Origin: a virus
Lineage: Duplodnaviria; Heunggongvirae; Uroviricota; Caudoviricetes
IMG/VR virus record: IMGVR_UViG_2506381017_000002
DNA length: 64,000 nt
Direction: 5' to 3' (one strand)
Each line of letters begins with the position of its first letter. Position 1 is the first letter of the stretch. The position numbers and the translations under genes are program-made. The notes beneath the pieces were generated by a model. That model saw only the letters and a program-made list of their open reading frames with translations, was not told where the DNA came from and ran no database searches. Positions 2,785 to 58,099 of this stretch are shown piece by piece.

Positions 2785-2928
2785 ATGACAGGATTAAAAG
2801 CACAAATTAAGAAGTATTTACGTAGCAACGGAATTAACATGATTACTAACGATCAAGGGCGTTCAATTCGTTTGGGTAATGCGAAAACACAAGATTTACT
2901 CAAGGTAGCAGTAAAGCATGGTTTCTAA
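2785..2928 (+). CDS. small hypothetical protein (47 aa)
   Basis: ATG preceded by AAGGAGAG; too short for the ORF track; basic, no motif. Confidence 0.3.
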   Translation: MTGLKAQIKKYLRSNGINMITNDQGRSIRLGNAKTQDLLKVAVKHGF

Positions 2929-3154
2929 ATTAAAGAAAAAGTTTTCAACCCTACCAACCTGGTTTCAATACTATTTAATTATACTTTCTATATTTTTGGG
3001 CTTTGTACTTTTTATGTTTCTTCCAATATTTTTAGCAACCTTTTGTTTTTGTTCTGGACACTGGATTTGGGGATTGCTAACGGTGTTCTTTGTTGCTCTT
3101 CCTTCAATAACATTTATCACTGTTTGGACAAATGAACACGATGGATGGTGGTAA
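2918..3154 (+). CDS. small membrane protein
   Basis: 78 aa with two strongly hydrophobic helices. Confidence 0.45.
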   Translation: MVSKLKKKFSTLPTWFQYYLIILSIFLGFVLFMFLPIFLATFCFCSGHWIWGLLTVFFVALPSITFITVWTNEHDGWW

Positions 3155-3420
3155 CAATCGAGACATTAGTTAAAGAAAAGGAAGTTAAAAGCGCCCAGAC
3201 TATAACGGCGTTGGGCTGTACTTATTGCCAGGAACCATACAAGAAAATGTGGTTATTTGACGGCTTACTCTACTTGCAAATTGAACATGCCGATGGTCTG
3301 CATTATTTAAATGTAGTACCTAATGGTGATTCAGAAGACGTGGGGTTCTTGTATAATCTTTGCGCTAGTCAAGAAATACATTTTTGTCCTATGTGCGGAG
3401 AAGGATTTAAGGAGGAATAA
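3145..3420 (+). CDS. zinc-ribbon protein (paralog A)
   Basis: CTYCQEP ... CPMCGEGFKEE; the same arrangement appears in the next ORF. Confidence 0.5.
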   Translation: MVVTIETLVKEKEVKSAQTITALGCTYCQEPYKKMWLFDGLLYLQIEHADGLHYLNVVPNGDSEDVGFLYNLCASQEIHFCPMCGEGFKEE

Positions 3421-3626
3421 TGAAATTAACTGAAAAGCAAAAGAATTGTCCGTACTGTCAGGAACCTAAGATGACCTTTATTGGAGAAGATGGAGTTCTT
3501 TATCAAGTTAGTGAAGATGCCTTCACAACACCAAAGCTAATTACGATAACCAATGGTCAAACTCACATTGTTAAGATTGAATATTGTCCAATGTGCGGTC
3601 GTTCTCTGAAAGAGGAGGAAAAATAA
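3420..3626 (+). CDS. zinc-ribbon protein (paralog B)
   Basis: CPYCQEP ... CPMCGRSLKEEE; strong AAGGAGG RBS. Confidence 0.55.
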   Translation: MKLTEKQKNCPYCQEPKMTFIGEDGVLYQVSEDAFTTPKLITITNGQTHIVKIEYCPMCGRSLKEEEK

Positions 3627-3829
3627 TGAACATCTATGAAGTCATGCGCTCTAAGGGATTACATTTTGGTAGCCATATTGTGATAGCTAAGAACGAGGAA
3701 AACGCTAAAAGATTGGTTGCAGATATGCTAAATGAAACTCAAACTGCTATTTTTTATAAGCCTAGTGAGTTTGTAGTTAGTGGTCCAATTGATCCCGACA
3801 ATTACTTCGAAGAGACGGTGATCGCTTAA
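3626..3829 (+). CDS. hypothetical protein, paralog of the minus-strand gene at 21324-21539
   Basis: GAGGAGG RBS before the ATG at 3626. The protein shares 'IYEV...ENA.RLV...SGPIDPDNYFEETVIA' with the minus-strand gene at 21324-21539 (...SSPIDPNDYAEETIIN). Confidence 0.55.
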   Translation: MNIYEVMRSKGLHFGSHIVIAKNEENAKRLVADMLNETQTAIFYKPSEFVVSGPIDPDNYFEETVIA

Positions 3830-4089
3830 TGCTACATAAATACACAAAGATAACGGCTATTGAAGCTGAGCAGTTTGATGGTTCGGATGAAATGATGAAT
3901 AAATATTGTATTACTGATGATGGCTGGGGAGAAACGTTCACTTTTCGGAAAGATAATAATTGTCTACCACTAAAGCGTGGCTGGTGGATTATTAATCTTG
4001 GAAAGATTACCGTGTTTGATGTGACATTCACCGATTGGAGAACTATGAGTGATGAAAAATTTCGTAGAACTTACAAGAGGTGTGATTAA
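3829..4089 (+). CDS. hypothetical protein
   Basis: 86 aa ORF; start overlaps the preceding stop (TAATG). Confidence 0.4.
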   Translation: MLHKYTKITAIEAEQFDGSDEMMNKYCITDDGWGETFTFRKDNNCLPLKRGWWIINLGKITVFDVTFTDWRTMSDEKFRRTYKRCD

Positions 4090-4319
4090 TGAGTAGTAGC
4101 AGAGCGAGAAATCATCAAGATTTAGTATGGGAAGCCCAGCATTTCAAACACTCTCATAGAAGATACGTTAAGCACTTCATAATTCGCTCGTATCATTCAA
4201 GAACACGATGGCGTCAATTAAGGAGAGAATGTCATATGAATATTTTCTCTTACCTATATCTTCATGCTACTCGTATTAAATCAACACCTAGAGGAAAGTG
4301 GAGTGACAATAATGAATAA
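4089..4319 (+). CDS. hypothetical basic protein (doubtful)
   Basis: Arg/His-rich 76 aa with an AAGAGG-like RBS; composition looks odd for a real protein. Confidence 0.2.
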   Translation: MSSSRARNHQDLVWEAQHFKHSHRRYVKHFIIRSYHSRTRWRQLRRECHMNIFSYLYLHATRIKSTPRGKWSDNNE

Positions 4320-4518
4320 ATGGGAAATATTCATGCAAGGATTTTTCTCAGCGTTTAATTCTTATGCGTTATTTATATCTGTATTTGGCGATTATAGAGT
4401 AAAGCTTATCACTGGAGCTGAGTGGGTATTATCTGAACATCCTGGTTGGAAATTTGCTCTAGTATCACTTTTCTTGGTTGGATTAGTTTGTTCAATTTAC
4501 AGTGTACGGAAAGGGTAG
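4312..4518 (+). CDS. small membrane protein
   Basis: GGAAAGTGGAG RBS before the ATG at 4312; two hydrophobic helices. Confidence 0.4.
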   Translation: MNKWEIFMQGFFSAFNSYALFISVFGDYRVKLITGAEWVLSEHPGWKFALVSLFLVGLVCSIYSVRKG

Positions 4519-4528
4519 GAAAGACTGA

Positions 4529-4930
4529 ATGAGTAAAGAAAAATGTCCATACTGTCATTTTGTTGACATTAACGATCCCGATAGCGATCCATTAGATACC
4601 ATTATCAGCTCAGGTAACGACATAGAACTATTTATGCGACCCAATCGAACATTTGAAGCTATTCTTAACTGTTATGACGGAGTTGATGGAGATTATAGTT
4701 TCGCATACAAGATTCCTGACACACTTAATTATTGTTATCACTGTGGCCGTCGCCTAGATGGGAAAGAGGGTATAGACTGGAACGATTTATTAATAAAGAT
4801 TGGATTCACATTATCATTACTTCTCGTCCCTATTAGCATAACTTTAGCAGTTACAGTTAGTCCAAACTTCTTATGCGGAGTTATGTTGGGTATTATTTTG
4901 CCAGTCATTTCTATTGTTTGGGTGGATTAG
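4529..4930 (+). CDS. zinc-ribbon protein with C-terminal transmembrane anchor
   Basis: CPYCHF ... CYHCGRR followed by two hydrophobic helices. Confidence 0.5.
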   Translation: MSKEKCPYCHFVDINDPDSDPLDTIISSGNDIELFMRPNRTFEAILNCYDGVDGDYSFAYKIPDTLNYCYHCGRRLDGKEGIDWNDLLIKIGFTLSLLLVPISITLAVTVSPNFLCGVMLGIILPVISIVWVD

Positions 4931-4943
4931 GAGGTTAATAAAT

Positions 4944-5795
4944 ATGGCAATTAAATTATTTAGCATAGGATTATTTGACGAGAAAGATGAGCTCACCAGT
5001 ATCAATATGAAAATTTTCCCGGATCACACACCGCTTATTCATGTAGATATAGAAGGATTCGAGCTATCTACCCTCAAGCTCGAAATTAGATGGGATTATG
5101 AGAATGATTCTGAATTAATGGATCTCATTTATATTACTCGTTATCTACAAGACAAAGGTGCTCCTCATATTGGCTTGACGATGCCTTATATCCCTAATGC
5201 ACGTTATGATCGGATCAATAACGACGATGAAGTCTTTACACTCAAATATTTTGCCGAAGTAATTAATTCCCTTCACTTTGATTATGTGGATGTTTTAGAT
5301 GCACATTCGAACGTTAGTCTTGCATTGATTGATAGAGTACGGCAAATAGATGTTGCTCCGTTAATTCAAAAGGCTATTGACGACTTTAAACCAGATGTTC
5401 TGTTTATGCCTGATGAGGGAGCACATAAACGTTACTCAAAGATGTTCACCCTTCCGTCAACGTTTGGTATTAAGACACGTGATTGGAGAACGGGTGAGAT
5501 CAAAGATTACTTCTTGGCTGAACAAAATTTAGTTGAAGATAGGCGTGTATTAATTATCGATGATATTTGTTCAAGAGGTGGTACTTTCTATTACTCTTCA
5601 AAATTACTTCGTGATAATGGTGCTACTTCAACTGGTTTATATGTAACCCATTGCGAAGAGAACATCGCTAATGGCAATTTACTCAATAAAGAAAAATCAG
5701 GCATTGAACAAATTTATACAGCTAATCCACTATGGCATAGAGATATGACCACATCAGTATATTCGCCATTAGACGAGATTAAAGTCATTGACTAG
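4944..5795 (+). CDS. ribose-phosphate pyrophosphokinase family protein (Prs-like; candidate ADP-ribose pyrophosphokinase Adps of NARP1)
   Basis: GGAGG RBS before the ATG at 4944. PYIPNARYDR matches the Prs PYYGYARQDR region, MPDEGAHKR matches the Prs SPDHGGV region, and the PRTase loop VLIIDDICSRGGT is present. The protein is 283 aa. Confidence 0.8.
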   Translation: MAIKLFSIGLFDEKDELTSINMKIFPDHTPLIHVDIEGFELSTLKLEIRWDYENDSELMDLIYITRYLQDKGAPHIGLTMPYIPNARYDRINNDDEVFTLKYFAEVINSLHFDYVDVLDAHSNVSLALIDRVRQIDVAPLIQKAIDDFKPDVLFMPDEGAHKRYSKMFTLPSTFGIKTRDWRTGEIKDYFLAEQNLVEDRRVLIIDDICSRGGTFYYSSKLLRDNGATSTGLYVTHCEENIANGNLLNKEKSGIEQIYTANPLWHRDMTTSVYSPLDEIKVID

Positions 5796-5805
5796 GAGGA
5801 ATTAA

Positions 5806-7326
5806 ATGACAAAACCGTATTTAGCAACAGATTTTTATAAAGTATCACATGCAATGAATCGACTAAATAAGCCGGCTCTTCACCCAGAAAGTATTGAATA
5901 TATTTATGAGGTGTTGACTCCACGTCAGAATTCATTCTTCCCATACGATGACAAGATGGTTGTGTTTGGCTATGAATTCTTTGTTGCACGTCTGTTGGGC
6001 GAATGGCAAACAGAGTTCTTTGACAAAGATTGGGAAGATATTAAGTTAGACTTTTATGTATTTTTCGAAATGTCAGATAGCCTTGTTTATCGTTCAATGG
6101 TTGAAAAACTCAAGCAATTACATGATTTGGGACATTTACCATTAGAAATTCGGTCATTGCCTGAAGGGTCATTAGTCCCAATGAGAGTTCCTGTGTTATC
6201 AATCAAAAATACTGATCCAGATTTCTATTGGCTTCCAGGTTTCTTAGAAACGACACTACTCGCAAATACTTTTGTAACAACTGGTACTGCTAGTGTGGCA
6301 CGTCAATTCCGTAAGATCGCTGAACATTATGGTGATGTTTCAGCAGACGATAAGGCTTATATTGATTTCCAATTCCACGACTTTTCACAACGAGGACAAC
6401 ATGGAGATGATGCTGCCGTTCTTTCTGGTATCGGACACTTGTCTAGTTTTAAGGGGACAGATGCAGTTCCAGCCGTAGATGAATTATTAAGAGTATATGG
6501 TGGACTTACCCCAGATGAACTAATCGGTGGATCAGTTGTTGCTACAGAACATTCAATTATGGAATCACTTGGTGGTGAATTTGGAACAGATAAGGAAGGT
6601 CAACTTAAAGCTTATGAGTCTTTAATAGATCGAAATCCAGATGGCGTCATTTCTGTTGTTTCAGACACCTACCAATATTGGGACGTTATTGATTATGTAT
6701 TGCCACAACTTAAAGAAAAGATTATGGCTCGTGATGGCAAGTTAGTTATTCGTCCTGATTCTCTTGATGAGTATCGTAAGGCGACTGGTCAAACTATTAA
6801 GTCTACTGAAGATCAATTAGTAACAACACTCCAGGCGTTATATGACACTTTCGGCGGCCATATTAATTCTAAGGGATACAAAGTGCTTGACCAACATATC
6901 GGATTAATTCACGGCGAAGGAATTACCCTAGATAATATTCGACCAATGTTTGATGCCATCTTAAATGCTGGTTTCTCTGCCGAAAATATTGTTTTCGGAT
7001 TAGGAGCTTATGTTTATTCCGTTAAGGTTTCACGTGATGATTTCGGACAAGCTTTGAAAGCTACCGCTTGCGTTATTGATGGTAAAGAGAAAGTTATTTT
7101 TAAGGCGCCTCATTCAAAAAAAGAAGCGTTCAAGCGTTCTCCTCATGGGGCGGTATCAATCCATGGTAAATCTGGGGAATATCATATGATTGAAAATTTG
7201 ACTATGGAAGAAGCAGCTAACGATAAAGATAATCAAATGACTTTGCTGTACAGTCCCAAATACGGTAATCGTGTCACATCATTACGAGATATTCGTCAAA
7301 AAATCTTAGATGGATTAGATAAGTGA
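5806..7326 (+). CDS. nadV: nicotinamide phosphoribosyltransferase family protein (NadV / candidate Namat)
   Basis: N-terminal LATDFYKVSH matches the NAMPT LATDSYKVTH signature. The protein is 506 aa with a strong AGGAGG RBS, 10 nt after the Prs-like gene. Confidence 0.8.
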   Translation: MTKPYLATDFYKVSHAMNRLNKPALHPESIEYIYEVLTPRQNSFFPYDDKMVVFGYEFFVARLLGEWQTEFFDKDWEDIKLDFYVFFEMSDSLVYRSMVEKLKQLHDLGHLPLEIRSLPEGSLVPMRVPVLSIKNTDPDFYWLPGFLETTLLANTFVTTGTASVARQFRKIAEHYGDVSADDKAYIDFQFHDFSQRGQHGDDAAVLSGIGHLSSFKGTDAVPAVDELLRVYGGLTPDELIGGSVVATEHSIMESLGGEFGTDKEGQLKAYESLIDRNPDGVISVVSDTYQYWDVIDYVLPQLKEKIMARDGKLVIRPDSLDEYRKATGQTIKSTEDQLVTTLQALYDTFGGHINSKGYKVLDQHIGLIHGEGITLDNIRPMFDAILNAGFSAENIVFGLGAYVYSVKVSRDDFGQALKATACVIDGKEKVIFKAPHSKKEAFKRSPHGAVSIHGKSGEYHMIENLTMEEAANDKDNQMTLLYSPKYGNRVTSLRDIRQKILDGLDK

Positions 7327-7339
7327 GGTTAATAAAATA

Positions 7340-7507
7340 ATGATTTTATCATTCTTAATAACAGTAGGATTCTTTCTATTTACAGTTTTTCTAGCGTGCG
7401 CCATGTGTTCAGATATTCCATGGCTAGAAATTCCAGCGGGGATTTTTATATTAGTGATGGTGTTTGGGGCATTGTGGTGGGCTGTTTACACGAGCTTCAT
7501 ACAATAA
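7340..7507 (+). CDS. small membrane protein (55 aa)
   Basis: ATG after GTGAGGT; two hydrophobic helices; below the ORF-track length cutoff. Confidence 0.35.
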   Translation: MILSFLITVGFFLFTVFLACAMCSDIPWLEIPAGIFILVMVFGALWWAVYTSFIQ

Positions 7508-7522
7508 CGAAAGGTTGATTTA

Positions 7523-7939
7523 ATGGCAGAAAATAAAATTAATAAATTACGAAAGAAATTAAAGAAAACAATTAAAAAATTTAATGAAAGTCAATGTAAG
7601 TATGTAGCCGTTGGTAAACACGCAGACAATACAGATATTGTAATGATTATAGATAGTTGGGGCGCAGATTCTCTACGGCATATCTTAACTATTCGTCCTG
7701 GTGGGATTTATTCTACAGATAGATCAACATTTAAGATTAATGACAACTTGTTAGAATTTATGACAAATTCCTATGAGTTGGTTAAAAAATTAAACGATAC
7801 TGAAATTCACAGTGCTGACACTAAAGCTTTAGATACACATAAAATTCCAGCACCTAAAAATCCGTTTAATAACAATAACTCAATTGCACAGGGTATTCCA
7901 TTTGATTGCAAGGAACCAGGAAACAGAGCTGTATTATAA
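7523..7939 (+). CDS. hypothetical protein
   Basis: 138 aa with a GAAAGG RBS. Confidence 0.45.
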   Translation: MAENKINKLRKKLKKTIKKFNESQCKYVAVGKHADNTDIVMIIDSWGADSLRHILTIRPGGIYSTDRSTFKINDNLLEFMTNSYELVKKLNDTEIHSADTKALDTHKIPAPKNPFNNNNSIAQGIPFDCKEPGNRAVL

Positions 7940-7959
7940 GGAGGAAATTGACATATTAA

Positions 7960-8787
7960 ATGAGAGTAAGTGAATGCTATCCAGGGCTAAAGGTGGGATA
8001 TTTAATTCTATTAGAAAAGACACATTTAATAGTAGCGGGACATAACAGAACTGCATATAAATGCAAATGCGATTGTGGAAAAATTGTTACTCGTACAGCT
8101 TTGAGCCTTCATCCTAATGCGCATTGTGGAGCTAGTTTTCATAATAGAAAATACTATCATCCAGATGGTATGTCTAAAGATGGTTTTCGTAAGGTTTATA
8201 CAACATGGTATAAAATAAAAAGCCGGTGCGAAGATCCAAATGACAAAGATTATCACAATTATGGTGCGCGTGGTATTACTTTATGCGATGAATGGCACGA
8301 ACTAAATAATTTTGTCAAATGGTATTGGGAGGAAAGTAATCATGAGATCTTAAGCCCCAAATATCAAACTGTAGACAGAATAGACGTAAACAAAGGCTAC
8401 TCTCCAACTAATTGCAGATTACTTACTATGGTTCAACAATCGAATAATAAACGCACGAATAAAATTGTTGAAATTGATGGAGAAAAATTGACATATAGTG
8501 AAGCAGCTAGAAAATATAATATCAAAAAAGATACGGTACGGTGGAGATATTTACATGGCAAAAGAGGTTGGGACTTAGTTGATCATCATGATAGTTCTAA
8601 GGTATATGTGTTCATTGATGGTGAAGAAATGACTCTTAAAGAGATTAGTGAAGCCTACAATATCCCTATAACAACTCTATATCATTGGCGGAAACACAAA
8701 AAAGATAGATGTGAGTTTGAAACGAAAGTACATAATTATAAGGAGGAACAAAGCATTGAGCACGAACAAGAGCTTCAACTATCCTGA
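7960..8787 (+). CDS. Cys-rich phage protein, HNH/homing-endonuclease-like family (paralog of the minus-strand gene at 25118-25831)
   Basis: N-terminal CYPG..G.L.L.EK followed by CxCDCG...C. It shares W..M..RC..pnd..Y..YG.RGI.vC.EW..f.nF..W with the minus-strand gene at 25118-25831. The functional call is tentative. Confidence 0.5.
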   Translation: MRVSECYPGLKVGYLILLEKTHLIVAGHNRTAYKCKCDCGKIVTRTALSLHPNAHCGASFHNRKYYHPDGMSKDGFRKVYTTWYKIKSRCEDPNDKDYHNYGARGITLCDEWHELNNFVKWYWEESNHEILSPKYQTVDRIDVNKGYSPTNCRLLTMVQQSNNKRTNKIVEIDGEKLTYSEAARKYNIKKDTVRWRYLHGKRGWDLVDHHDSSKVYVFIDGEEMTLKEISEAYNIPITTLYHWRKHKKDRCEFETKVHNYKEEQSIEHEQELQLS

Positions 8788-9457
8788 TAACGAATTATAT
8801 CAATTTGTTCAGGAAGAATTACATAAACGAGGTATTACAGCATATTCTATTGGTGAGATTGCATACGAAATGCAGCATGATTATTTGCCAGATTATGAAA
8901 TTAGCGATTTTGCGGAACAATTCAGCGAAGTTCTTAAGAAGCGTGAGGTATTAAATCTTCTTGCATTTGCATTTGAACTAGACAATCTTGCTAATAAACG
9001 TATGTTTAGTGAACCAATTCAAAATATTATTGAAAATGATGCTGGCTTCTGGCAGATTGATGAAATTTTAGCTTCATCCTTGGCACAATTATTCGGCATG
9101 CTTGCGATTACGAATTACGGATACCTTGACAAAAATAAAGTAGGAATTGCAAGACGACTTGATGAGGAGGACAGTATTACTGTATTTTCAGACGATATTG
9201 TTTCTGCTCTTGCTTCGGCAGTAATTGGTCGCTGTGGTCATGGTTCCAAGCTGGAACTTGATGACAATACTGTAGAAGATAAACAAATTAATGATGAATT
9301 TAAAGAACTCAAGTTTGTGGTAAACGGTAAAGAAGTTGAACCCCAAGGCGATCTACGTTATTTTGCGAAGCCTATTAAGAGTGATCGTAAATTACCTAAT
9401 TGGGATCTAAATAAGTTTGCAAATGATTTAGGAAAAGCAATTAATAATTCACGGTAA
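8757..9457 (+). CDS. phosphatidylglycerophosphatase A family protein (PgpA/YutG-like)
   Basis: TTG start at 8757 with AAGGAGG 9 nt upstream. The blocks KRGITAYSIGEIAYEMQ, EPIQNIIENDAGFWQIDEILAS, ITNYGYLDK and FSDDIVSALASAV align with Bacillus YutG as I remember it. Confidence 0.65.
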
Positions 9458-9517
9458 CTCGCTGATAGCTTAGAAGAAGAATTCAGTCACGATTATTATG
9501 TCAACCTGAGTGTAGAC

Positions 9518-9910
9518 ATGGACGACGAATTTACTTGGCAACTAGCTATTGACCTATTAGATAATCAAATGGAATTAGTCGATGTAATTTTCGTCGATTT
9601 GGAATACTTCCTTGATTACGTATATCTCGAAGTTGATCCGCCTAGTGAGTTTGTTGATACAGCGCAAATGATTGCTCAATTCGTATTTGAACACGATCTT
9701 TATCCATATCCAGAGGACAGTAACGATTTAGAAGAAGCAGATGACGAAGACGATGAACTCGATATGAGTGAAATGACCAAGGCACTTGCTGCAATTACCC
9801 CATTATTCATGGAACACTTCAACTCATTGATAAAGTCTGGATCACTAGACAGTCTAATTGATATATTGAGTGACAAAGAAGATAATCGAAAGGATGATGC
9901 TAATGAATAA
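9518..9910 (+). CDS. acidic hypothetical protein
   Basis: 130 aa, very Asp/Glu-rich. Confidence 0.45.
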   Translation: MDDEFTWQLAIDLLDNQMELVDVIFVDLEYFLDYVYLEVDPPSEFVDTAQMIAQFVFEHDLYPYPEDSNDLEEADDEDDELDMSEMTKALAAITPLFMEHFNSLIKSGSLDSLIDILSDKEDNRKDDANE

Positions 9911-22942: not shown

Positions 22943-23359
22943 TTACTTGCTCTCTACTGGTTCAATCTTAACTTCGTCCCAATTAATAGTGGCAAAGAAT
23001 GGGTTGGTTTTCATTTCATCAATTTCTGATTGGGTGAAGTGCGTTTGATACTTCCCATCTCCCTCGTTATCATAAAGAAAATAGACGCCATCTCCTATAT
23101 CTTTATTCAAGAATCCATCATCATTTGGCAAAACTTGAACAGTATATTCACTATCGCCTTCTGCTAATTTAATGCGTTTATGCAGACTATCTCTATACAT
23201 TGCCATACCAACCATTTGATTAGCTAACAACATTTGATTAATGGTTGAAATACTTAGAAAATCATCGCAATCAATGAATTTTTGTAGCTTCTCAATTTTT
23301 GTTTCTAACTCAAATAATTCAAGATTTAAATTTTCAGTATCAATTATTTTATTTATCAT
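22943..23359 (-). CDS. hypothetical protein, module gene B'
   Basis: Paralog of the gene at 21539-21880. Confidence 0.5.
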   Translation of the reverse strand: MINKIIDTENLNLELFELETKIEKLQKFIDCDDFLSISTINQMLLANQMVGMAMYRDSLHKRIKLAEGDSEYTVQVLPNDDGFLNKDIGDGVYFLYDNEGDGKYQTHFTQSEIDEMKTNPFFATINWDEVKIEPVESK

Positions 23360-25957: not shown

Positions 25958-26024
25958 TGGGACGGGTGGGATTCGAACCCACGACATTGTGCACTTGTTC
26001 TACCAAACTGAACTACCGACCCTG
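25958..26024 (-). pseudogene. tRNA-like element (truncated anticodon arm; probable tRNA pseudogene)
   Basis: Acceptor GGGTCGG/CCGTCCC with one mismatch; D arm GTTC-AGTTTGGTA-GAAC; T arm GTGGG-TTCGAAT-CCCAC. Only ~65 nt, with about 8 nt missing between the D and T arms. Confidence 0.4.
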
Positions 26025-26295
26025 CTTGCTTTAGTACATTCAGAAAGCATTCCAAAGATCTTATTTTAAGCTCACAAATTTATTACACGGATAGGAGCTA
26101 GGTTCTACGTTTACCTGAATCGCCGTGGTTTCTATAAGAAATTTCTAACAACGAGGGAGCTACCCTCCGGCTACATATTAACGGTGGTGTAACCTTAGAT
26201 GCCACGTTTCCATTTCAATTAAGAAGGTTGATAAAAACCTTTCATCACTGCGCTATAGCGCGTCTGCCAATTCCGCCACTCCGGCGATTCAGAAT

Positions 26296-26440
26296 TTGAT
26301 CCTATACGCCAGAGGTAGGACTCGAACCTACAAAATCTATAGCATTTTGTGACTATGGAGTAGACGGGAGTCGAACCCGTGTCCAACCAAACCAGTTTCC
26401 AAATACATTTTAGACTTATTAGGATTATGTACTTAATTCT
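26296..26440 (-). other. two abutting tRNA-like elements of non-canonical structure
   Basis: T-arm-like CACGGG-TTCGACT-CCCGT plus CTACTCCA at ~26356-26400, directly followed by hairpin ACAAAAT-GCTATAG-ATTTTGT plus T arm GTAGG-TTCGAGT-CCTAC plus CTCTGGCG at 26307-26355. No matching 5' acceptor strands were found. Confidence 0.3.
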
Positions 26441-26791
26441 TAAATCAAAATAGTCACATAATCATTTTCCAAAGACTATTTTAATCGATCTAGTTTTAAT
26501 ACTTAGTCACACTTAAACTAGCAAATCATGAACTAAGACCAGAGGGGTGAAATGTGATAGCTAGTATCCTTATCTGGTATCAAGATATTAACCAAGTGCC
26601 TATAAGCTAGGCAGCTAAAGCTGTAACTCTATGGTTATTTGCTTTTATATTTAAATGAAAGTATTTCGGCGTTATCTTCCGTAAGTCGTATTTAGGGCTT
26701 TATTTGACTGTCGAATCCATAAACTACCCCAGAATAGAGCTTTAAATCATAGCTCCAAATAATAATTCAAATAGACTTCTTGATGAAGTCT

Positions 26792-26865
26792 ATAACATAG
26801 AAGGGATTTGAACCCTTGCTCTTACCCGCTAAGATAAAGCTCTACCAAGCTGAGACTTACTATGT
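26792..26865 (-). tRNA. tRNA-like gene (74 nt; perfect acceptor and T arm, internal arms not resolved)
   Basis: Acceptor AACATAG/CTATGTT 7/7, T arm AAGGG-TTCAAAT-CCCTT, D-loop-like CAGCTTGGTAGAGC. I could not fold the anticodon arm by eye. Confidence 0.45.
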
Positions 26866-27209
26866 TACTTATATATCAAAATATTTCTTGTGGTGGAACC
26901 CCTAACAGCTTTTGCCTTATTCCACATTTATTCCTACTAGCTTCATAGGATGGGCATAGTCCTTATCCCTGCTAAGGGGGCGCTGTCGTTACTCGCTGAA
27001 TATTTTAATATGTTCTTGTTAAGGGAGACTCATTTCAAGACCTCAACATCGGTCGGTTGAATGACTACTTACGCGCTAAGGATGTATACTATCCTTTCAT
27101 CATCTTCCCACCTGGTAGCTAACCCCACTCACGGATTCCGCACATGACTACGCTCCGTCAGCGAATATTGTACCTGTCTTTTATAAAATCCTGATTTTAA
27201 AAACCAGAA

Positions 27210-27282
27210 TGGACCTTGCAGGACTCGAACCTACGACCGAGCGGTTATGAGCCGCCTGCTCTACCAACTGAGCTAAAGGTCC
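27210..27282 (-). tRNA. tRNA-Met (anticodon CAT; could be Ile2 if lysidinylated)
   Basis: GGACCTT-TA-GCTC-AGTTGGTA-GAGC-A-GGCGG-CTCATAA-CCGCT-CGGTC-GTAGG-TTCGAGT-CCTGC-AAGGTCC-A gives a full canonical cloverleaf; no encoded CCA. Confidence 0.9.
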
Positions 27283-27428
27283 AAAATTTAGAGAACACGA
27301 TTAATCACTTCATGTTCTCAAAGTAACAAGGATAGTTGATTAGTCCTATCGCCGAGACGCCCATTCAAGTGCGTTGCTCTCCTTTACATACCAACCACTA
27401 CATTCAAAGCGTTGACGCTTGCTACTCT

Positions 27429-27515
27429 AACTACGAAGACAGGATTCGAACCTGCAACCTAGGATCAAGTTTTATCGGTGTACACCCCTATGCTCTAGCC
27501 AATTGAGCTACTTCG
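27429..27515 (-). tRNA. tRNA-like gene (~87 nt, long-variable-arm type; anticodon unresolved)
   Basis: Acceptor TACGAAG/CTTCGTA 7/7, D arm GCTC-AATTGGCTA-GAGC, T arm GCAGG-TTCGAAT-CCTGT; 36 nt between the D and T arms that I could not fold unambiguously. Confidence 0.4.
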
Positions 27516-27888
27516 TAAGAATAATGTCCACCCAGAAACGTTAGATGGTGAACTGATAAGTTAAGAGCTTGTTGACTGTGCTAAGTATCAGTCTGATTAC
27601 TCTTAGAGCTTATATCTTTTTGATGGACATTGACTTAGCAATTCTGTCCACGAATGATTAATTAGTAGGTTTACCACCAACCTACCTTGTAGAAACGCCG
27701 TTAAGCTTTCGTGGTCATGGTCACTCATTCTACTTTCACGGGGTTTGCCATGACACAAGCCGCTTGGTTTTTCTTAATAGCCTGACTAGGGCTACCAAAA
27801 TACAACAACTACCAATGGGCAGTGAAACGCCATGATTTAGGCGTATATCCAAATTCACTTGGTGTTCTCCTTGCATACCAAGGAGAAT

Positions 27889-27950
27889 AGCTTGGGAGGG
27901 AATTGAACCCTAAACGTACGCTGGCACCCTGCCATTATCACCAAGCCCCA
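27889..27950 (-). pseudogene. truncated tRNA-like element (~60 nt)
   Basis: Acceptor GGCTTGG/CCAAGCT and T arm TAGGG-TTCAATT-CCCTC, but only 26 nt between; no D or anticodon arms. Confidence 0.3.
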
Positions 27951-28800
27951 AACATAATACATGTATCGTTTTCGTTACTGTATTTTTACGTGCCAGTTGA
28001 AAACTGTTAATAAAAGTCGCAATGCACGGGCCCGTAGGCCATTGCCGTTTTGATAGGCTCGGCAACCTCTATATAAGACCGTTTTATTTTAACGGTGACG
28101 GTGCACCCCATCATTCAACCAATTAAGAGAGGGTTGATTCTCTCGACAATAACTGTCGATTAAGGAGTCAAGCTCCACGTTAATCTGATTAATCTTTAAC
28201 AAGACAGCCTCTTTCTTATCTGTCATACCTATTTCTTTTGCATTCACACGAACACCGAGGTGGGTAATTATTCTGTATTTCGAAGCCCTACGTGAGCCGT
28301 AATCAGATTTTATAAAAGAAGCATTTTACAGATGTATCTCCGTATGTTTATAGGGCTGGGCGCTGATTTAACAATATCTAGCCGATTTCAAGAGGTGATC
28401 AACCCCTCTAGCGCACTTGTTCATCGGGTATCCAACATGTCTCGTCCCGGGAAGCCCACACTTCCAGTGTAAGAGACTATATCTTCAAATACTTCCCGCC
28501 ATTAAATGACTTGCAATCTTATGTTTGTATTATTCAGGGTGTAGATTACTAGATCACCCGAACCCGCAACCTGAGAATTAAACCCAGCATTAACTTAGGC
28601 AATATCTGCATCGCAGGTAGTCGCACACGCAACCATAACAATAAGAAGCGTGGCATCAATCACATTACGAGCATTAGAAACTCCTCCAGTTGTGAGTAGG
28701 ATACCTCGTATAAATCACATTACTGCCATTTATACTCAAGCGCTTCAACCGACATACCTGTTGCCGGTTTTCCTATTATACATATCCATATAACAGAAAC

Positions 28801-28885
28801 ACCTAGAGAGGGATTTGAACCCCCGAACCCGAAGGAACGGTTTTGGAGACCGTCGCGTTTGACCAGACTTCGCTATCTAGGTATT
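28801..28885 (-). tRNA. tRNA with long variable arm and anticodon CCA (85 nt)
   Basis: ACCTAGA-TA-GCG-AAGTCTGGTCAAA-CGC-G-ACGGT-CTCCAAA-ACCGT-TCCTTCGGGTTC-GGGGG-TTCAAAT-CCCTC-TCTAGGT-G. The acceptor is a perfect 7/7, the D stem is 3 bp (class II like) and the variable arm is 12 nt. A UGG reader with class II architecture is unusual. Confidence 0.6.
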
Positions 28886-29037
28886 AATAACGTGCCATGC
28901 CAGCGTAAACACGTTATTAGATCGAATTGAAAAATGTAAAGGTAAAGGTATATGGAAAATATAACCTATTGAACATACGTTAGGTGTTTTTACATTCCAA
29001 ACGTTTTCCGTCATTTGGAACAACCTATTACTAGGAA

Positions 29038-29110
29038 TTTCGGTAATGGGAATCGAACCACATATCTACACTACATAATGTTGCTCTACCATTGAGCTAT
29101 ACCGAACCTT
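29038..29110 (-). tRNA. tRNA-like gene (T stem imperfect)
   Basis: Acceptor TTCGGTA/TACCGAA, D arm GCTC-AATGGTA-GAGC, anticodon-like ACATT-ATGTAGT..., but T stem TGTGG/CCCAT is mismatched. Confidence 0.3.
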
Positions 29111-29179
29111 GTCAAGATAAGACCACACATATCTTATCTGACTAACCAATCTTTCATATTTCGGAGGTGCTTAACCATG

Positions 29180-29260
29180 AAAGGAGTTCCCCAGCCCAAC
29201 CACTTAGCTGGGAATAACACAAAACGGAATCGAACCGCAGTGTGCCAACAAAAGTAGATA
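29180..29260 (-). other. tRNA-like fragment(s)
   Basis: CGG-TTCGATT-CCG T-loop-like motif and a D-loop-like GCTAAGTGGTTGGGC; no complete cloverleaf found. Confidence 0.2.
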
Positions 29261-29339
29261 AAAAGAAATGACAATTTATGAATCAACAATTTTTGATTAT
29301 CAAACACAGCACGTAAATGTTTAATAATTTCGGGCATTT

Positions 29340-29420
29340 CTGCCCTATGCGAAGCAGAGGAGTCGAACCTCTGTAAAGGACAAACATGGATGATTAAAAA
29401 TTAGAAAGGTGTGTTTGTAT
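29340..29420 (-). other. tRNA 3'-half-like element
   Basis: T arm AGAGG-TTCGACT-CCTCT plus acceptor 3' strand GCTTCGC-A; no matching 5' strand within 400 nt. Confidence 0.25.
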
Positions 29421-29500
29421 TATCAATTTAAAAGATATATAGGGAGTGTGTACTTCCAAAATGTACGTATTGCCTTTCCACTCTTCGCGATAGACCCACT

Positions 29501-29573
29501 TGGACTCGAACCAAGGTTGGTAGTTTAGAAGACTACTGTTCTATCCAGTTAAACTATAGGTCCATAATCAGGA
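29501..29573 (-). tRNA. tRNA-Arg (anticodon TCT)
   Basis: GGACCTA-TA-GTTT-AACTGGATA-GAAC-A-GTAGT-CTTCTAA-ACTAC-CAAC-CTTGG-TTCGAGT-CCAAG-TGGGTCT-A; all stems pair (two G-U wobbles in the acceptor); 73 nt. Confidence 0.85.
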
Positions 29574-30558: not shown

Positions 30559-31308
30559 TTATTGTACTTTATTTGGGCGCCAGTTGATCTTACCTACTAT
30601 CGCTGTTGCCGTGTAAAATAGCGTCATAGCAAGCATTGGTAACGCAGCCTGAGAATATCCATCCTTAAGTGCAGTAAACCATAATAGTACGTTCACAAAA
30701 TCAGAAATCAACCATAATGTGTATGTTGTTGAATATTGCCGGAAACATAACCAACTAGCCGTTCCACCAATAGCAAGTGCCAATGCGTCCCAAAGAGGGT
30801 TTGTATCATGAAGATAGATTCCAACATAATAAAGCACAAACCAAGCTGCTAAGATTGCAACAATTACATATAACCAGCCCATCTTAGTTAATCCTTTAAT
30901 TTCCGTACTCTTACCGCTCCATGTACGCCAATTCTTTAACAAAGGTAAATCAATCAAGAATAGAAATACCAGTTGATCTAAGACACTCCAATAATGGCCG
31001 GCACTAACATTGATAATGACATAAGCAATTACAGAAATACTTCCAAGCAATCCATTAATAGCATGACTGGATACTCGATTTCCTTCTGAATCATATCCAC
31101 CTGCGCCCATAGCAACTGTACACCACATACCAAAGAATATTCCGATAAATGATACAACCGCAATCCAATTAATTGGGTTTAATAACAGAATAGCTAATTG
31201 AAATCCTACGCCAAATCCAAATAGTGCCCAGGGGAACCGATCCCAACCTGTTAATTCTTCTTTTAACCATTGAAGATAAGTACCTTCAAAACGATATGCT
31301 TTATCCAT
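30559..31308 (-). CDS. multi-pass membrane protein, possible PnuC-like nicotinamide riboside transporter
   Basis: 249 aa with about 7-8 TM helices and W/N/G-rich helices typical of the NMN_transporter family. Its size fits PnuC (~230-250 aa). The call is tentative and motivated by the NAD genes elsewhere in the window. Confidence 0.4.
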   Translation of the reverse strand: MDKAYRFEGTYLQWLKEELTGWDRFPWALFGFGVGFQLAILLLNPINWIAVVSFIGIFFGMWCTVAMGAGGYDSEGNRVSSHAINGLLGSISVIAYVIINVSAGHYWSVLDQLVFLFLIDLPLLKNWRTWSGKSTEIKGLTKMGWLYVIVAILAAWFVLYYVGIYLHDTNPLWDALALAIGGTASWLCFRQYSTTYTLWLISDFVNVLLWFTALKDGYSQAALPMLAMTLFYTATAIVGKINWRPNKVQ

Positions 31309-53564: not shown

Positions 53565-53921
53565 TTAGTCTTCTAATTCTTCGATAGCATCATCAATCGC
53601 TTGACTTAATACATAGCAACGCAAGGAAACATCAATTGATTCATAGCAATCATCAAGCCACCATTCAGCAGTTTTTTGACGGTCCATAAACCCTTCATCA
53701 ATTGCTTCGCGGATTAAGTCCTTGTTATCATCAACGTATTCCTTGGCTTTGTTGGCGTTGAAAGTATATGATCCTGAGCCATTACCAGTTACAGAATCTT
53801 CGATCCAAAGTTGTTCGTTGAGTTCTTCACGATCAACCTCGTTGACATTGATTTCGTTGTCCTTGATGAAGTCGATTACATCGTTCTTAACATTTTCAAA
53901 GTAGTCATATTGTTGTGTCAT
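53565..53921 (-). CDS. acidic hypothetical protein
   Basis: 118 aa. Confidence 0.45.
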   Translation of the reverse strand: MTQQYDYFENVKNDVIDFIKDNEINVNEVDREELNEQLWIEDSVTGNGSGSYTFNANKAKEYVDDNKDLIREAIDEGFMDRQKTAEWWLDDCYESIDVSLRCYVLSQAIDDAIEELED

Positions 53922-53984
53922 GATATTTACCCCTCAATTAATATATTTTAGTATTTTTGTTGTGATTAATAGTGTAAGATTACA

Positions 53985-54197
53985 TTAGTTTAGCAAGTTC
54001 GTCAATAGTACCCGTAGAAGTGGTAAGGTCACTGCAATAACAATAACTGTAATGAATACAGCTAAAATACTGTACTTCTTGAACCTGATTAGCCTTTCGC
54101 TATCTCGTTCTAACTGCTTAATGTATTCAGGATCAACCAACTTGTAATCCTGTTCAGCGTATTTCTGTAGTTCCTTTTGTGACATCATAATTGTCAA
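53985..54197 (-). CDS. small membrane-anchored protein
   Basis: 70 aa with a C-terminal TM helix. Confidence 0.4.
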   Translation of the reverse strand: MTIMMSQKELQKYAEQDYKLVDPEYIKQLERDSERLIRFKKYSILAVFITVIVIAVTLPLLRVLLTNLLN

Positions 54198-54719
54198 AAC
54201 CTTTCTAATTTGCTTCAGCGGTTATTATTAATCGCTTTATATAGAGTCTTATCGTGTTGATAAGGCTCTCTAAAAACAATTAATAGTGTCTTTTTCACTT
54301 TCACAGGCTTAAACCAAGGAATATTAGCAAGTCCCTGCTGGTAGTATCACGGTGCCTTTATCTACTATTGATTAGGCGGTTGACGTGGAATCACCTCCCC
54401 CTACCGTACCGGGTTATTTACCAACTTTTGATATTGCGGAGTTGTTCTCAGTTCTACTGAAAGATTGAACCGCCGTTATTTTGTTTTCAAAGTTCAGCAT
54501 ATGTTGGTTTGAAAGTGATTGAGTATGCTCTCGCTCACACTGTCCGCCACCTTAACTTTTAGCTTGAATACAGTTATGGCTTTATCCTGCCCTAGGTGAT
54601 ATATGGAATCCTACACCCTTGCGGTTTATCAAGTTATTATGTTAAGCCTGTTCAGCCCGTTGACTTTTGCGACTTGTTAACGTTTTTTGAATTGGTAACT
54701 TTCCAATTAGTTTGAACAA

Positions 54720-55490
54720 TTTTATATAACATCGTAAGTTATATAAGGATAACCTTTTATTTCTTAATCGCTTCAAGGCTTGCGATTGCCTGCTCCTTTA
54801 TCGTGTCTTTATTATAACTTCCGATGTTATAATTGTCAAGACTTAATTTTTTGAATTGTAGCGGTTGACCTTGAAGTCAAAGTTAGATACTCAAGTGAAC
54901 TCACTTTCAATCCATTTATTAAGTTTGTGCTTTTTATTATAACTTCGTAAGTTATAAATTGTCAAGAAGTAAATTTGATTAATTTTTAATCACCTAGGCT
55001 AGTTCGATGACTGCTCTTTATTGTGATTGTCCTAATCAACTTTACGGCTTTATTATAACTTCCGATGTTATAAATGTCAATACCTTTTTCAAATTATTTT
55101 TGATACCTGGTATTTATTGCCGTTGTCCTTTTGACGATTCCAATTATAACATCGCAAGTTATAAAGTCAACTATTTTTTGTAAAAAAATAAGAGTAGTTA
55201 TAATAACTACTCTTGTAATTCTTTTAGGCGCTTATCTAATTCAATTTTAAACTCTTTCAAATCACTGATATAAGTATCTCTTATATCTATATTAGATTTT
55301 ATTAATTGATATAATCTTGTTTTAGATGATGGGCGAATAAAGCCCCCCGCCTCACTCTTACGCTTCCAATAGTAAGCTTTATCTGGATTAGCTTTTTCAT
55401 AATTCTTTTTTGCTTGTTTTTGTGCTTCACTAACCAAGACTTCACCTCCTTTTTACTTTATAACATGGTAAGTTATAAGTATTATACCAT
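54720..55490. repeat. array of six TTATAAC-N7-GTTATAA palindromic promoter/operator elements
   Basis: Copies at ~54731, 54810, 54943, 55076, 55144 and 55462. Several embed TGTTATAAT/TGTTATAAA extended -10 sequences, and several are followed by ATTGTCAAG. Confidence 0.6.
55207..55437 (-). CDS. small basic protein (TTG start), candidate regulator; inverted paralog of the plus-strand gene at 56715-56912
   Basis: AAAGGAGGTGAA RBS; one TTATAAC-N7-GTTATAA element sits between its -10 and its RBS. The C-terminus ...DKRLKELQE matches ...ERLKELKK in the paralog. Confidence 0.5.
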   Translation of the reverse strand: MVSEAQKQAKKNYEKANPDKAYYWKRKSEAGGFIRPSSKTRLYQLIKSNIDIRDTYISDLKEFKIELDKRLKELQE

Positions 55491-56714
55491 ACTCAACAGA
55501 AATAAAACTACACAATCAGTAATTGACTATTACAATACTTAAGTTTAAAATTGTTATATCTCCTTGAGTAAGGAGGTGACAACATGAAACATAATGAAAA
55601 AGAAAAGAAACAACCCTATAAGGCTTTTTACTTTGAGTGTAGCCTAATAAAGTTATTTCTTAAAATCATCATTATAAAGTAGTGTAATCACTTCCCTGAG
55701 TTGTTGTGTGACGGCTCAACCCAGGGAGATTTTTATTACAATTACATTATATCACAATTTATTGTGGTATTATATATTTGTTGATATGATATTACTAGAT
55801 TGTTATAATATAGATACAAGAAAACCCCTAAAGGTTGTTAACTTGTCCGTTAACCTTTAGGGCGGTGAGTTATTCACTACTTAATAATAAAGAATTTAAA
55901 GAATAATCTTAAAAGGCTGAACTCGCAATATACAACCTTAAAAGATTGTTCTTTTTTCTTTTTATTGTTCATGTTCCCACCCCCTTTCCTTAAGGGGTTA
56001 AAATAATTTAAACATCGTTATTTCTGAAAGTCAATAATTGAAAAAGAAAAAGCCAAAACGCAAAAGTAAAAAACGTTAAGGCTTAAAGGCTTAAAAGCTT
56101 ACATATTGAGGGAACGTGGCGCCGTTCCCTTTTTGTATAATTATCATATCATACTTACAACCCTAACAGAATAGAAAAATAACACCCCTTTATTTTTCTA
56201 TATAAGGAAGAAAAAACATAATAAAAAAACGATAAAGAAAAAAATAAATATACATGTTGACAACATGAAGAATTGTGTTATTATAATATACGTAAGCTAT
56301 TAATATAGTTTACAAGGCGACACACTAACAACAAATAATAAAGGTTTGAGGTGGTCAAATTGTATTCTATATTGTTGCATGCTGCAACCTTGTTTAGTTT
56401 GGTAAGTGGTGGAATTCTGGCGATAGTAACATCAATCGAAAAAGTTCTTATCATAAAAGAAAAAGCCCACAAGTCAGATAAGGACAAGGGGCAAAAATAA
56501 CTTACATTTATGAATATTTGGGAAGTGTTGCGACCACTTCCCTTTTTCTACAGTGTTATAATAACATAATAAAAAGGGTGTGACAATATGAAATGGATCA
56601 TATTAATTGGTCTATATCTTTTCGGGTTTGTTTGTCTAACGGTTGCGATCAAAAAGGCGAGAAAAATATATAATACTTTAAAGCATAATAAATAATTAAA
56701 ATAAATATAGAATT

Positions 56715-56912
56715 ATGGAAAACAAACAAAACAAAACAAGTAAAGCAAAATTACAAGCAAATAAACGCTATCAAGAAAGACATAAAAAAGAAGTTTATCG
56801 CAATCAGAAAAAATCTAGGGCGAAAAATTTTCTATTGAATGATGCAAGGATTGACGAACTAGAATTTTTTTCTGAATTAATTTCTGAAAGATTGAAAGAA
56901 TTAAAAAAATAA
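56715..56912 (+). CDS. small basic protein, inverted paralog of the minus-strand gene at 55207-55437
   Basis: 65 aa, K/R-rich then IDELEFFSELISERLKELKK. Confidence 0.45.
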   Translation: MENKQNKTSKAKLQANKRYQERHKKEVYRNQKKSRAKNFLLNDARIDELEFFSELISERLKELKK

Positions 56913-56939
56913 TAATAGTAATTAGGGTAATGCGTTAGT

Positions 56940-57620: not shown

Positions 57621-58099
57621 CAGATTATAATATATGAAATTTTGTTCATATGAATTAGTGAAAAGTACCCTACCCAGCCCACCAAAATAAATATATTAAG
57701 TTTACAACTGTAGCCCCTTATAAATAAAATTACCCCTTATCAAAAGATAGGGGCTTTCTTTTTCGATATTAAAATATTCTTGTAACCGTTTACACATAAC
57801 AACAACTATTATTGTGTCTTAAATTTGCAAATAGGCGGGGGTTATTTTACTCAAAACGCCTTAATTTTTAGGGAAAATTTTAGGGTAGTTGCTTCACTCA
57901 CACACCACAAAATTTTTTCCATTCACCCCATTTCTCGCACCCTATCACCCCTCAAATATCCCAATAAATTAATACCAAATTTAACCTTTTCAAAACTATG
58001 AAAATATCTTTCATAATCTTTCAACACAATATCCCTACCCATTCCTCTCACCCTTTCCCATTCAACTATAAATAAAGAGCCTAGGAATTACCCTAGACT

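Follow-up and report, generated by a model that had tools for sequence, protein, structure and literature searches.

What do two adjacent genes, one for a protein resembling ribose-phosphate pyrophosphokinase (Prs) and one for a protein resembling nicotinamide phosphoribosyltransferase (NAMPT or Nampt), do for the element that carries them? The question is raised by positions 4944 to 7326 of a stretch of 64,000 nucleotides from a tailed virus (IMG/VR record IMGVR_UViG_2506381017_000002), which in its whole length is called the window below. A preliminary description had proposed that the two genes encode an ADP-ribose (ADPR) pyrophosphokinase (Adps) and a nicotinamide-ADPR transferase (Namat), the two enzymes of the NARP1 pathway for the reconstitution of nicotinamide adenine dinucleotide (NAD+), with a classical salvage pair as the alternative. 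NARP1 turned out to be the best-supported reading, since the first gene product falls in the Adps clade and the second in the Namat clade rather than with the Nampt of NARP2 systems. The pair is thus probably a NARP1-type module, with its substrates, the preference of its Namat subclade for ADPR pyrophosphate (ADPR-PP) and its anti-defense phenotype taken over from homologs.

In such a module, NAD+ would be cleaved to ADPR and nicotinamide by a host NADase defense (Thoeris ThsA, DSR, SIR2-HerA, SEFIR and similar systems). The Adps-like enzyme would take the beta,gamma-pyrophosphate from ATP and attach it to the terminal ribose of ADPR (ADPR + ATP giving ADPR-PP + AMP), and the Namat-like enzyme would replace this pyrophosphate with nicotinamide (ADPR-PP + nicotinamide giving NAD+ + pyrophosphate). 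NAD+ would be regenerated directly, with neither a nicotinamide mononucleotide (NMN) intermediate nor an NMN adenylyltransferase (Nmnat). The two genes are carried together as a discrete cassette, within the block of early/replication genes on a phage-plasmid.

The list of open reading frames (ORFs) places both genes on the plus strand. The first, predicted to encode the Adps from its identity to the SpβL1 enzyme, its clade and its signature residues, occupies 4944 to 5795 and gives 283 aa when counted from the ATG at 4944. This start is preferred because a Shine-Dalgarno sequence, GGAGG, lies at 4930 to 4934, 10 nt upstream of the ATG. A TTG at 4914 was rejected as a start: the longer frame that begins there reaches back into the end of the upstream gene and lacks a ribosome-binding site of its own, the Shine-Dalgarno sequence serving the ATG at 4944. 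The second gene (5806 to 7326, 506 aa) is predicted to encode the Namat from scores against Protein Data Bank (PDB) structures, its clade, an AlphaFold2 (AF2) model and its catalytic residues. The spacer between the two (5796 to 5805, plus strand) is exactly 10 nt long and holds the Shine-Dalgarno sequence of the second gene, AGGAGG. A scan of 2800 to 9600 revealed no terminator-like site, neither between nor around the two genes. The sizes, spacing and motifs of the preliminary description are exact to the base: PYIPNARYDR corresponds to residues 81 to 90 of the first protein, in which IIDDICSRGGT starts at residue 204, and LATDFYKVSH to residues 6 to 15 of the second. The Prs-like protein matches PF00156 and phrog_619 (E = 3e-62), and the NAMPT-like protein matches PF04095 (E = 6e-25), NF006629 (E = 8e-117) and phrog_448 (E = 7e-142); judged by these matches, the homology of both proteins to named families is far beyond chance. 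The two proteins are identical to WP_019253486.1 and WP_019253487.1, respectively, both of Limosilactobacillus reuteri.

The first gene product clearly reads as a predicted Adps and not as a cellular Prs. It is 36% identical to the validated SpβL1 Adps, which acts on ADPR and gives no product with ribose-5-phosphate (bioRxiv 10.1101/2024.02.11.579819). The curated NCBIfam cutoffs for Prs are not reached: the window protein scored 81 bits with TIGR01251 (cutoff of 113; validated Adps, 98 to 138 bits; E. coli Prs, 423 bits) and 50 bits with NF002320 (cutoff of 297; E. coli Prs, 533 bits). In a neighbor-joining tree, 26 Adps-like sequences were split with 100% bootstrap from six cellular Prs, i.e., that of E. 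coli and five actinobacterial proteins from Table S1 of the discovery paper (Osterman et al.). The window protein was found on the Adps side, in one subclade with SpβL1 Adps (100% bootstrap).

The alignment revealed that the residues of the active site are conserved, with F25, R87, H121, D157, K177 and D206/D207 being equivalent to ICP1 F18, R87, H121, D161, K185 and D212/D213. The catalytic beta-hairpin (K177-TRDWRTGE-I186; 5472 to 5501, plus strand) carries the lysine equivalent to ICP1 K185 and SpβL1 K162, whose catalytic role has been described (PMC13586617; bioRxiv 10.1101/2024.02.11.579819). Its motif, K-x-R-[DN]-x-x-T-G-x-I, is common to validated Adps and missing from the six cellular Prs. 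The remodeled PP-loop, which forms the ATP-donor site (D206-D-I-C-S-R-G-G-T-F-Y-Y217; 5559 to 5594, plus strand), reads DDICSRGGTFYY, with DDIC as in ICP1 and Bas63, and the segment includes the lid aromatics F215 (ICP1 F221) and Y217 (ICP1 F223); the structural roles of these PP-loop and lid residues are known (PMC13586617). The position of ICP1 F221 is occupied by Phe in every Adps aligned and by Leu in E. coli Prs. Among the three residues contacting the adenine of ADPR in ICP1 (F18, R87, and F92), the equivalents of F18 and R87 are kept. The F92 position is Asn in the window protein and also varies in validated Adps (Glu in SpβL1, Met in Bas63).

Lack of the C-terminal alpha11-alpha12 module of PRPS was called a “defining evolutionary signature” of Adps (PMC13586617). 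The window protein has 78 residues beyond the DD of the PP-loop, compared with 96 to 108 in cellular Prs, and its alignment stops before the tail of E. coli Prs, indicating that this module is absent. All of the 120 closest homologs are similarly short (258 to 298 aa). Finally, a Namat homolog was found within ten genes for 97% of the Adps clade (Osterman et al.); here, a Namat-like gene follows 10 nt downstream.

The second gene product is closer to Namat than to Nampt. When the PDB was searched with it, SpβL1 Namat scored 322 bits, Xanthomonas (Xcc) Nampt 160 bits and human NAMPT 148 bits, whereas the reciprocal control with KVP40 Nampt gave 401 and 359 bits for Nampt and 240 bits for Namat. 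In a neighbor-joining tree with 14 Nampt-type sequences, cellular and eukaryotic ones included, the window protein formed one clade with the Namat of SpβL1 (36% identity), Bas63 and ICP1 (100% bootstrap). Its AF2 monomer model (pLDDT of 94.8) had Namat structures at the top of the Foldseek ranking (9w5x/9w5w; E = 2e-45, TM of 0.86 to 0.89), ahead of NAMPT (E = 2e-38, TM of ~0.8). The catalytic core that it shares with Nampt, defined in SpβL1 numbering by D13, Y15, F189, R192, D215, the catalytic His, R306 and D308, is fully conserved as D9, Y11, F193, R196, D219, H249, R316 and D318. The curated profiles named in the preliminary description as a check did not separate the two families: with PHROG, NCBIfam and Pfam, Namat and Nampt are not told apart, and phrog_448 and NF006629 hit the Namat of SpβL1, Bas63 and ICP1 and the Nampt of KVP40 alike. 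We therefore discarded profile libraries as discriminators of Namat and Nampt; phrog_619 also matches E. coli Prs, and only the low scores with Prs models were useful.

The Namat clade contains two groups, group A with every validated enzyme and group B with the window protein (98% support), the latter also including the proteins of Brochothrix phage A9 and Listeria phage P100 and homologs from Lactococcus, Vagococcus and Paraclostridium assemblies. We compared the selectivity clamp, which consists of a helix (SCH) and a loop (SCL), in 247 sequences. The 29 sequences of group A have an 11-aa SCH (G-S-[YF]-[ST]-Y-Q-[YF]-x-T-R-D), an SCL segment of 13 to 14 residues and Ser at position 190; the 99 of group B have a 12-aa SCH (G-A-[YF]-V-Y-S-V-x-x-[ST]-R-D), an SCL segment of 14 residues and Ser190; and the 119 Nampts have an 11-aa SCH (G-G-[GA]-L-L-Q-x-x-[ND]-R-D), an SCL segment of 10 residues and Gly190. 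In the window protein, the aligned SCH is G400-A-Y-V-Y-S-V-K-V-S-R-D411 (7003 to 7038, plus strand), with a helix predicted at residues 401 to 406 in the AF2 model, and the SCL is Q41-N-S-F-F-P-Y-D-D-K50 (5926 to 5955, plus strand), within a segment of 14 residues. The aromatic at SCH position 3 (Tyr402; F392 in SpβL1), the Tyr at position 5, the Ser/Thr before the conserved R-D, Ser190 and the long SCL tie it to the Namats and set it apart from the 119 Nampts. Group B amounts to ~100 protein clusters, among them those from Herelleviridae phages and from elements of Lactobacillales. By this alignment, its adenine clamp is rebuilt: the residue equivalent to Tyr396 of SpβL1 is changed to Val (93 of the 99 members), one residue is inserted, D361 is changed to Glu and the SCL carries conserved Phe/Tyr together with Pro-Tyr/Trp. 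The published clamp signature of Namat describes only one of two large subclades.

Many members of the Namat clade are enlarged by insertions of ~100 to ~330 aa at about residues 260 to 320, among them P0039, P0062, P0063, P0068, P0070 and P0074 (820 to 882 aa) and the proteins of Bas63 and P100 (593 to 597 aa). These insertions may be inteins or inserted domains. The 820- to 882-aa homologs were considered as Adps-Namat fusions and rejected, as they show no similarity to Adps and have instead an insertion of ~300 aa inside Namat.

The two genes also behave as a unit. An Adps-like gene lies upstream of the group B Namat gene in all eight loci examined, directly or two small ORFs away. In the window, the pair is flanked by a 12-bp direct repeat, GAGGTTAATAAA. 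The left copy (4931 to 4942, plus strand) comes right after the TAG stop (4928 to 4930) of an upstream 133-aa ORF and overlaps the Shine-Dalgarno sequence of the first gene. The right copy (7325 to 7336, plus strand) overlaps the Namat stop codon (TGA, 7324 to 7326) and provides the Shine-Dalgarno sequence for the next ORF (ATG at 7340). Plasmid p53608_1 of strain ATCC 53608, which is syntenic with the element, is missing exactly the segment from 4943 to 7324 and retains one copy of the repeat, with nothing between the flanks, indicating that the two genes were gained or lost as one unit. The pair is a discrete two-gene cassette, polymorphic between phage-plasmids of L. reuteri. It is found within a codirectional block with phage-type replication and nucleotide-metabolism genes, such as those for DNA polymerase III alpha, ligase and thymidine kinase.

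Some neighboring genes deserve mention. On a 140-kb metagenome scaffold related through group B (L041, 1606 to 3389), a gene of Gad2 (PF26128), an anti-Gabija family, is immediately upstream of the Adps-like gene, which hints that the locus is an anti-defense island in related elements. A Dcm-type cytosine methyltransferase gene upstream of the cassette (1241 to 2539 in the window; 5426 to 6734 in L002) encodes an intact protein of 424 aa in part of the public copies and in others is split or partly inverted, leaving pieces of 225 aa on the minus strand and 200 aa on the plus strand; this suggests an invertible or disrupted segment. Two genes downstream of the pair (7960 to 9457, plus strand), a 275-aa helix-turn-helix protein is followed by an overlapping gene for a 233-aa PgpA-family phosphatase (8756 to 9457; PF04608, 56 bits), a lipid-phosphatase family that is met here in a phage early operon, and the strain FN041 relative has a single 371-aa “phosphatidylglycerophosphatase A” at this position. 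The PgpA protein was discarded as an Adpp-like phosphatase, for which there was no supporting evidence: the known Adpp is a Macro-domain protein of an unrelated family.

Neither the genes called in the window and its flanks nor the PGAP annotation of plasmid NZ_CP102426.1 included one for an Nmnat (PF01467 type), NadR, Nudix, Macro-domain or RyR-domain protein; outside the window, the negative result for Nmnat depends on how this 93 to 95% identical relative was annotated (PLSDB/PGAP). The ORFs neighboring the pair gave no match to the Macro-domain ADPR-1''-phosphatase of NARP1-AP. These absences exclude NARP2, a complete NARP3, NARP1-AP and a RyDEP-extended operon, and they also imply that a pair producing NMN would be incomplete on its own. 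A 237-aa ORF and a dNK gene beside the tRNA block were examined as a NadR-like kinase/Nmnat and rejected, as the dNK matches a deoxynucleoside kinase family of the ordinary kind and nothing was hit by the 237-aa protein. The element does encode a PnuC-family nicotinamide riboside transporter (30559 to 31308, minus strand; 249 aa; PF04973, 82 bits; identical to WP_019253525.1). Its gene is 23 kb from the pair, on the opposite strand, and adjoins Band_7/prohibitin and glutaredoxin genes; a NadR-like partner for it was seen neither in the window nor in the annotation of the element. In addition, residues 10 to 64 of a 138-aa protein (22943 to 23359, minus strand) match PF21825 at 40.5 bits (cutoff of 24.8). 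This family comprises the “Sequestin” phage sponges, which are reported to sequester the Thoeris signal 3'cADPR (bioRxiv 10.1101/2025.07.12.664507); most sponges are about half as long as this protein. It is a candidate for a second countermeasure of the element against NAD+-depleting defense, and its presence elsewhere in the window fits a counter-defense repertoire.

Several points weigh against the assignment to NARP1. The trees were built by neighbor joining on Kimura distances from small taxon samples and not by maximum likelihood. Clade placement cannot fix ADPR-PP rather than phosphoribosyl pyrophosphate (PRPP) as the donor of the second enzyme, because an NMN-forming enzyme is in the same clade. 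This enzyme is the NadV of Haemophilus ducreyi, which has been used as a Nampt for NMN production in E. coli and whose structure was solved with NMN (PDB 9ke8/9keo). Against the window protein, it scores 322 bits, equal to SpβL1 Namat. Its sequence, transcribed from the HMMER alignment for residues 15 to 489 only, is 57% identical to SpβL1 Namat and falls inside the 100%-supported Namat clade. Its SCL (...PY...) is similar to that of the window protein. It forms NMN, and neither stacking position of its SCH (GAQTYQ-RNTRD) is aromatic. To our knowledge, it is not paired with an Adps. The preliminary description had offered placement in the “NadV clade” as a refutation, which is ill-posed since the founding NadV, that of H. 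ducreyi, is itself in the Namat clade. The clamp of the window protein also departs from the published rules. The SCH consensus is G-S-X-Φ-X-Φ-X-Φ-T-R-D, in which the residues of positions 3 and 7 are aromatics that stack on the adenine (PMC12774641); the window protein has V406 at position 7 (SpβL1 Tyr396), Ala at position 2, Ser for Thr and one residue more. The SCL, longer than in Nampt, should have Arg as its third residue, or else Lys/Tyr there and a residue that stacks in fourth place (PMC12774641), and the third residue is Ser in the window protein. The fourth is Phe, which could stack on the adenine by analogy with the Trp at this position in Bas63 Namat (PMC12774641). Because the SCH signature is not matched, we class the protein, from its sequence, as a variant within the Namat clade rather than a canonical Namat. 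In the literature, we found no biochemical or genetic test of any member of its subclade, the validated NARP1 modules being those of Bas63, SpβL1, Fado, ICP1, Gary, P. foliorum and DyoEdafos. Finally, the element also lives as a plasmid, and a housekeeping role in NAD metabolism of a niacin-dependent host is conceivable. Given the place of H. ducreyi NadV, the decision rests on the partner gene and the clamp residues, and it is the partner gene and the behavior of the cassette that carry the argument for NARP1. The earlier statement that sequence alone cannot distinguish the two readings does not hold for the first gene (clade, signatures, and scores) and holds only in part for the second.

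In classical salvage, the pair would consist of a divergent PRPP synthetase and a NadV/Nampt making NMN, and host NadR/NadD or PncC would complete NAD+. This is what every profile library suggests by naming the proteins Prs and NAPRT/NAMPT, and it would agree with the working Nampt of H. ducreyi in the Namat clade, with the PRPP activity that SpβL1 Namat itself keeps and with the absence of one of the two clamp aromatics from the window protein. We consider it very unlikely all the same, since the first gene product scores like validated Adps, far below every curated Prs cutoff, and, besides its place in the Adps clade, has the hairpin specific to Adps, a Phe in the lid and a truncated C terminus; its relative SpβL1 Adps, of the same 100% subclade, gave no product with ribose-5-phosphate. 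Moreover, PRPP-type phage Nampts form another clade, and 94% of their genomes encode an Nmnat according to the survey of the discovery paper, whereas neither Nmnat nor NadR was found among the called genes of the window and flanks or in the annotation of the relative.

Two variants of the reconstitution reading retain the Adps. The transferase of group B could have relaxed specificity, using the ADPR-PP made by the Adps-like enzyme and host PRPP comparably, thereby recycling ADPR and raising NMN. The Val found in place of Tyr396 in nearly all of group B, with its conserved insertion and D361-to-E change, argues in this direction, as do the clamp double mutants of SpβL1 Namat, which lose NAD+ synthesis and keep NMN synthesis (PMC12774641). 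SpβL1 Namat itself is reported to form NAD+ exclusively when offered PRPP and ADPR-PP together. However, F392, the residue with the largest effect in combination, is kept as Tyr402, the stacking contact that was lost could be made up for by the aromatic conserved at SCL position 4, as in Bas63, where Trp stacks on the adenine, and the strict pairing with Adps (8/8 loci) argues for ADPR-PP as the selected substrate, so that we regard this variant as unlikely. We attach similarly little weight to the idea that the donor specificity of group B differs from those of both Namat and Nampt, for example with both PRPP and ADPR-PP, or else some other ADPR derivative, serving as donor, maybe combined with PnuC import in a hybrid NAD+ supply benefiting the carrier cell. 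Alternatively, the chemistry could be that of NARP1 and its primary role not lytic counter-defense but NAD+ homeostasis of the host-plasmid partnership, possibly with PnuC, for example in repair after ADP-ribosylating or NADase toxins or in support of a niacin-dependent host. This role, which is compatible with a NARP1-type module, would suit an element with PnuC and with genes for plasmid replication, partition and toxin-antitoxin systems, and bacterial NARP1 homologs exist whose physiological role is not known (PMC12774641). It appears quite unlikely as the primary one, since the cassette lies in a block with phage-type replication and nucleotide-metabolism genes, is dispensable (absent from p53608_1) and belongs to a type of module for which every tested example has an anti-defense phenotype.

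The preliminary description had treated the carrier as a plain phage, which the plasmid replication and partition genes and a match in PLSDB correct: the window is part of a ~127-kb SPβ-like phage-plasmid of L. reuteri. Contigs of 123 to 139 kb from this species carry exact WP_019253486.1 and WP_019253487.1, and the pair is present at 95% identity in the complete plasmid NZ_CP102426.1 (128.8 kb, strain FN041; PLSDB). The element carries phage genes (terminase, a 9.1-kb tape-measure gene, holin/XhlA, and tail genes), homologs of YorH and YonG of the SPβ family and plasmid-type genes for RepA_N (~63703 to 64788), ParA (62155 to 62967), an Alp7A/ParM-like actin (60393 to 61604) and RepC, besides PemK, RelE and ArdA. 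Structural and lysis genes occupy one half, and the other half holds plasmid functions, PemK, Fic and at least three tyrosine recombinases. Related elements (NZ_CP102426.1 and LN906635.1) were deposited as “plasmid” in complete genomes, and proteins of the element recur in hundreds of metagenome assemblies. Near-identical phages were not found in INPHARED by megablast, IMG/VR had only two distant loci related to the pair, and the representative genomes of GTDB had only ~30% identical proteobacterial homologs.

Two other regions of the window were noted. The gene-poor segment from 53900 to 59600, upstream of the partition genes, shows a local inversion of GC skew (+0.26 at 56 to 58 kb), only very short ORFs in public annotations and only one, weak, tandem repeat (57129 to 57164); it is possibly a plasmid origin or a noncoding region. 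A block of RNA genes (25958 to 29563, minus strand) includes a tmRNA (26353 to 26730; 75 bits with Rfam; tag peptide ANNHRVTALAA according to ARAGORN) and seven tRNA matches, one of which (27430 to 27518) was given an odd four-base anticodon, “tgta,” by ARAGORN.

If the NARP1 reading is true, a common extrachromosomal phage-plasmid of L. reuteri, a widely used probiotic species and gut symbiont, carries a countermeasure against NAD+-depleting immunity, which is relevant to the dynamics of phage and host and to how stable such elements are in lactobacilli. The FN041-type elements with the cassette and p53608_1 without it form a natural near-isogenic pair. As the clamp signature covers one subclade only and an NMN-forming NadV is in the “Namat” clade, the annotation of NARP1 should rest on the Adps partner together with the clamp residues, since a clade or a profile match by itself is not enough.

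NARP1 is found in about 4% of sequenced phages (bioRxiv 10.1101/2024.02.11.579819), and the pair can be compared with several known systems. NARP3 of phage Bas30, which required both of its genes, consists of a PnuC-like transporter and a NadR-like enzyme, and the window shares with it only the PnuC-family transporter. NARP2 of KVP40 (NadV/Nampt and Nmnat) also counters NAD+-depleting defenses, and its Nampt has the same family fold and catalytic residues as the window protein. This Nampt, which prefers PRPP (bioRxiv 10.1101/2024.02.11.579819), differs by its place in the Nampt clade with cellular and eukaryotic enzymes, where the window protein is not found, by its SCH (GGGLLQQLDRD) and by its short SCL; moreover, NARP2 needs its Nmnat, and none is annotated on the window's element. 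In Phass-1, a human-gut phage of the “code 15 clade” (OQ749652.1; L009, 4435 to 7537), an annotated nicotinamidase precedes the Adps-like and Namat-like genes, an arrangement that is puzzling because nicotinamidase destroys the cosubstrate of Namat; its Namat-like protein aligns an Ala with the nicotinamide-binding Asp215.

The SpβL1 NARP1 (Adps WIT26982.1 and Namat WIT26983.1; 9w5w/9w5x) has the same gene order as the window pair, with similar sizes (272 + 491 aa, compared with 283 + 506 aa), and all its catalytic residues are conserved in both window enzymes. Its carrier is likewise an SPβ-like large temperate element of Bacillota, as the YorH and YonG homologs indicate for the window's element. 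The latter differs in replicating as a plasmid (RepA_N, ParA, and ParM/Alp7A) and in having a predicted Namat of the sister subclade, with GAYVYSVKVSRD instead of GSFTYQY-NTRD in the SCH and QNSFF instead of TSR in the SCL. The closest named phage relatives are those of the Herelleviridae, Brochothrix A9 (gp144-145) and Listeria P100 (gp63-64), whose Namats are 44 to 45% identical to the window protein, belong to its subclade, carry the same variant SCH (GAFVYSVNVSRD, GAYMYSFSLSRD) and are encoded next to an Adps gene. Both are strictly lytic myoviruses, unlike the window's element, and the P100 Namat has an insertion of ~100 aa. They were labeled “Adps-associated” NARP1 by Osterman et al. (Tables S1 and S2). 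With its nearest phage relatives already counted as NARP1, the pair is a fairly ordinary example of the system, to which the present analysis adds a phage-plasmid of L. reuteri as carrier, the polymorphism of the cassette between strains, the clamp variant of a large subclade and the place of H. ducreyi NadV inside the Namat clade.

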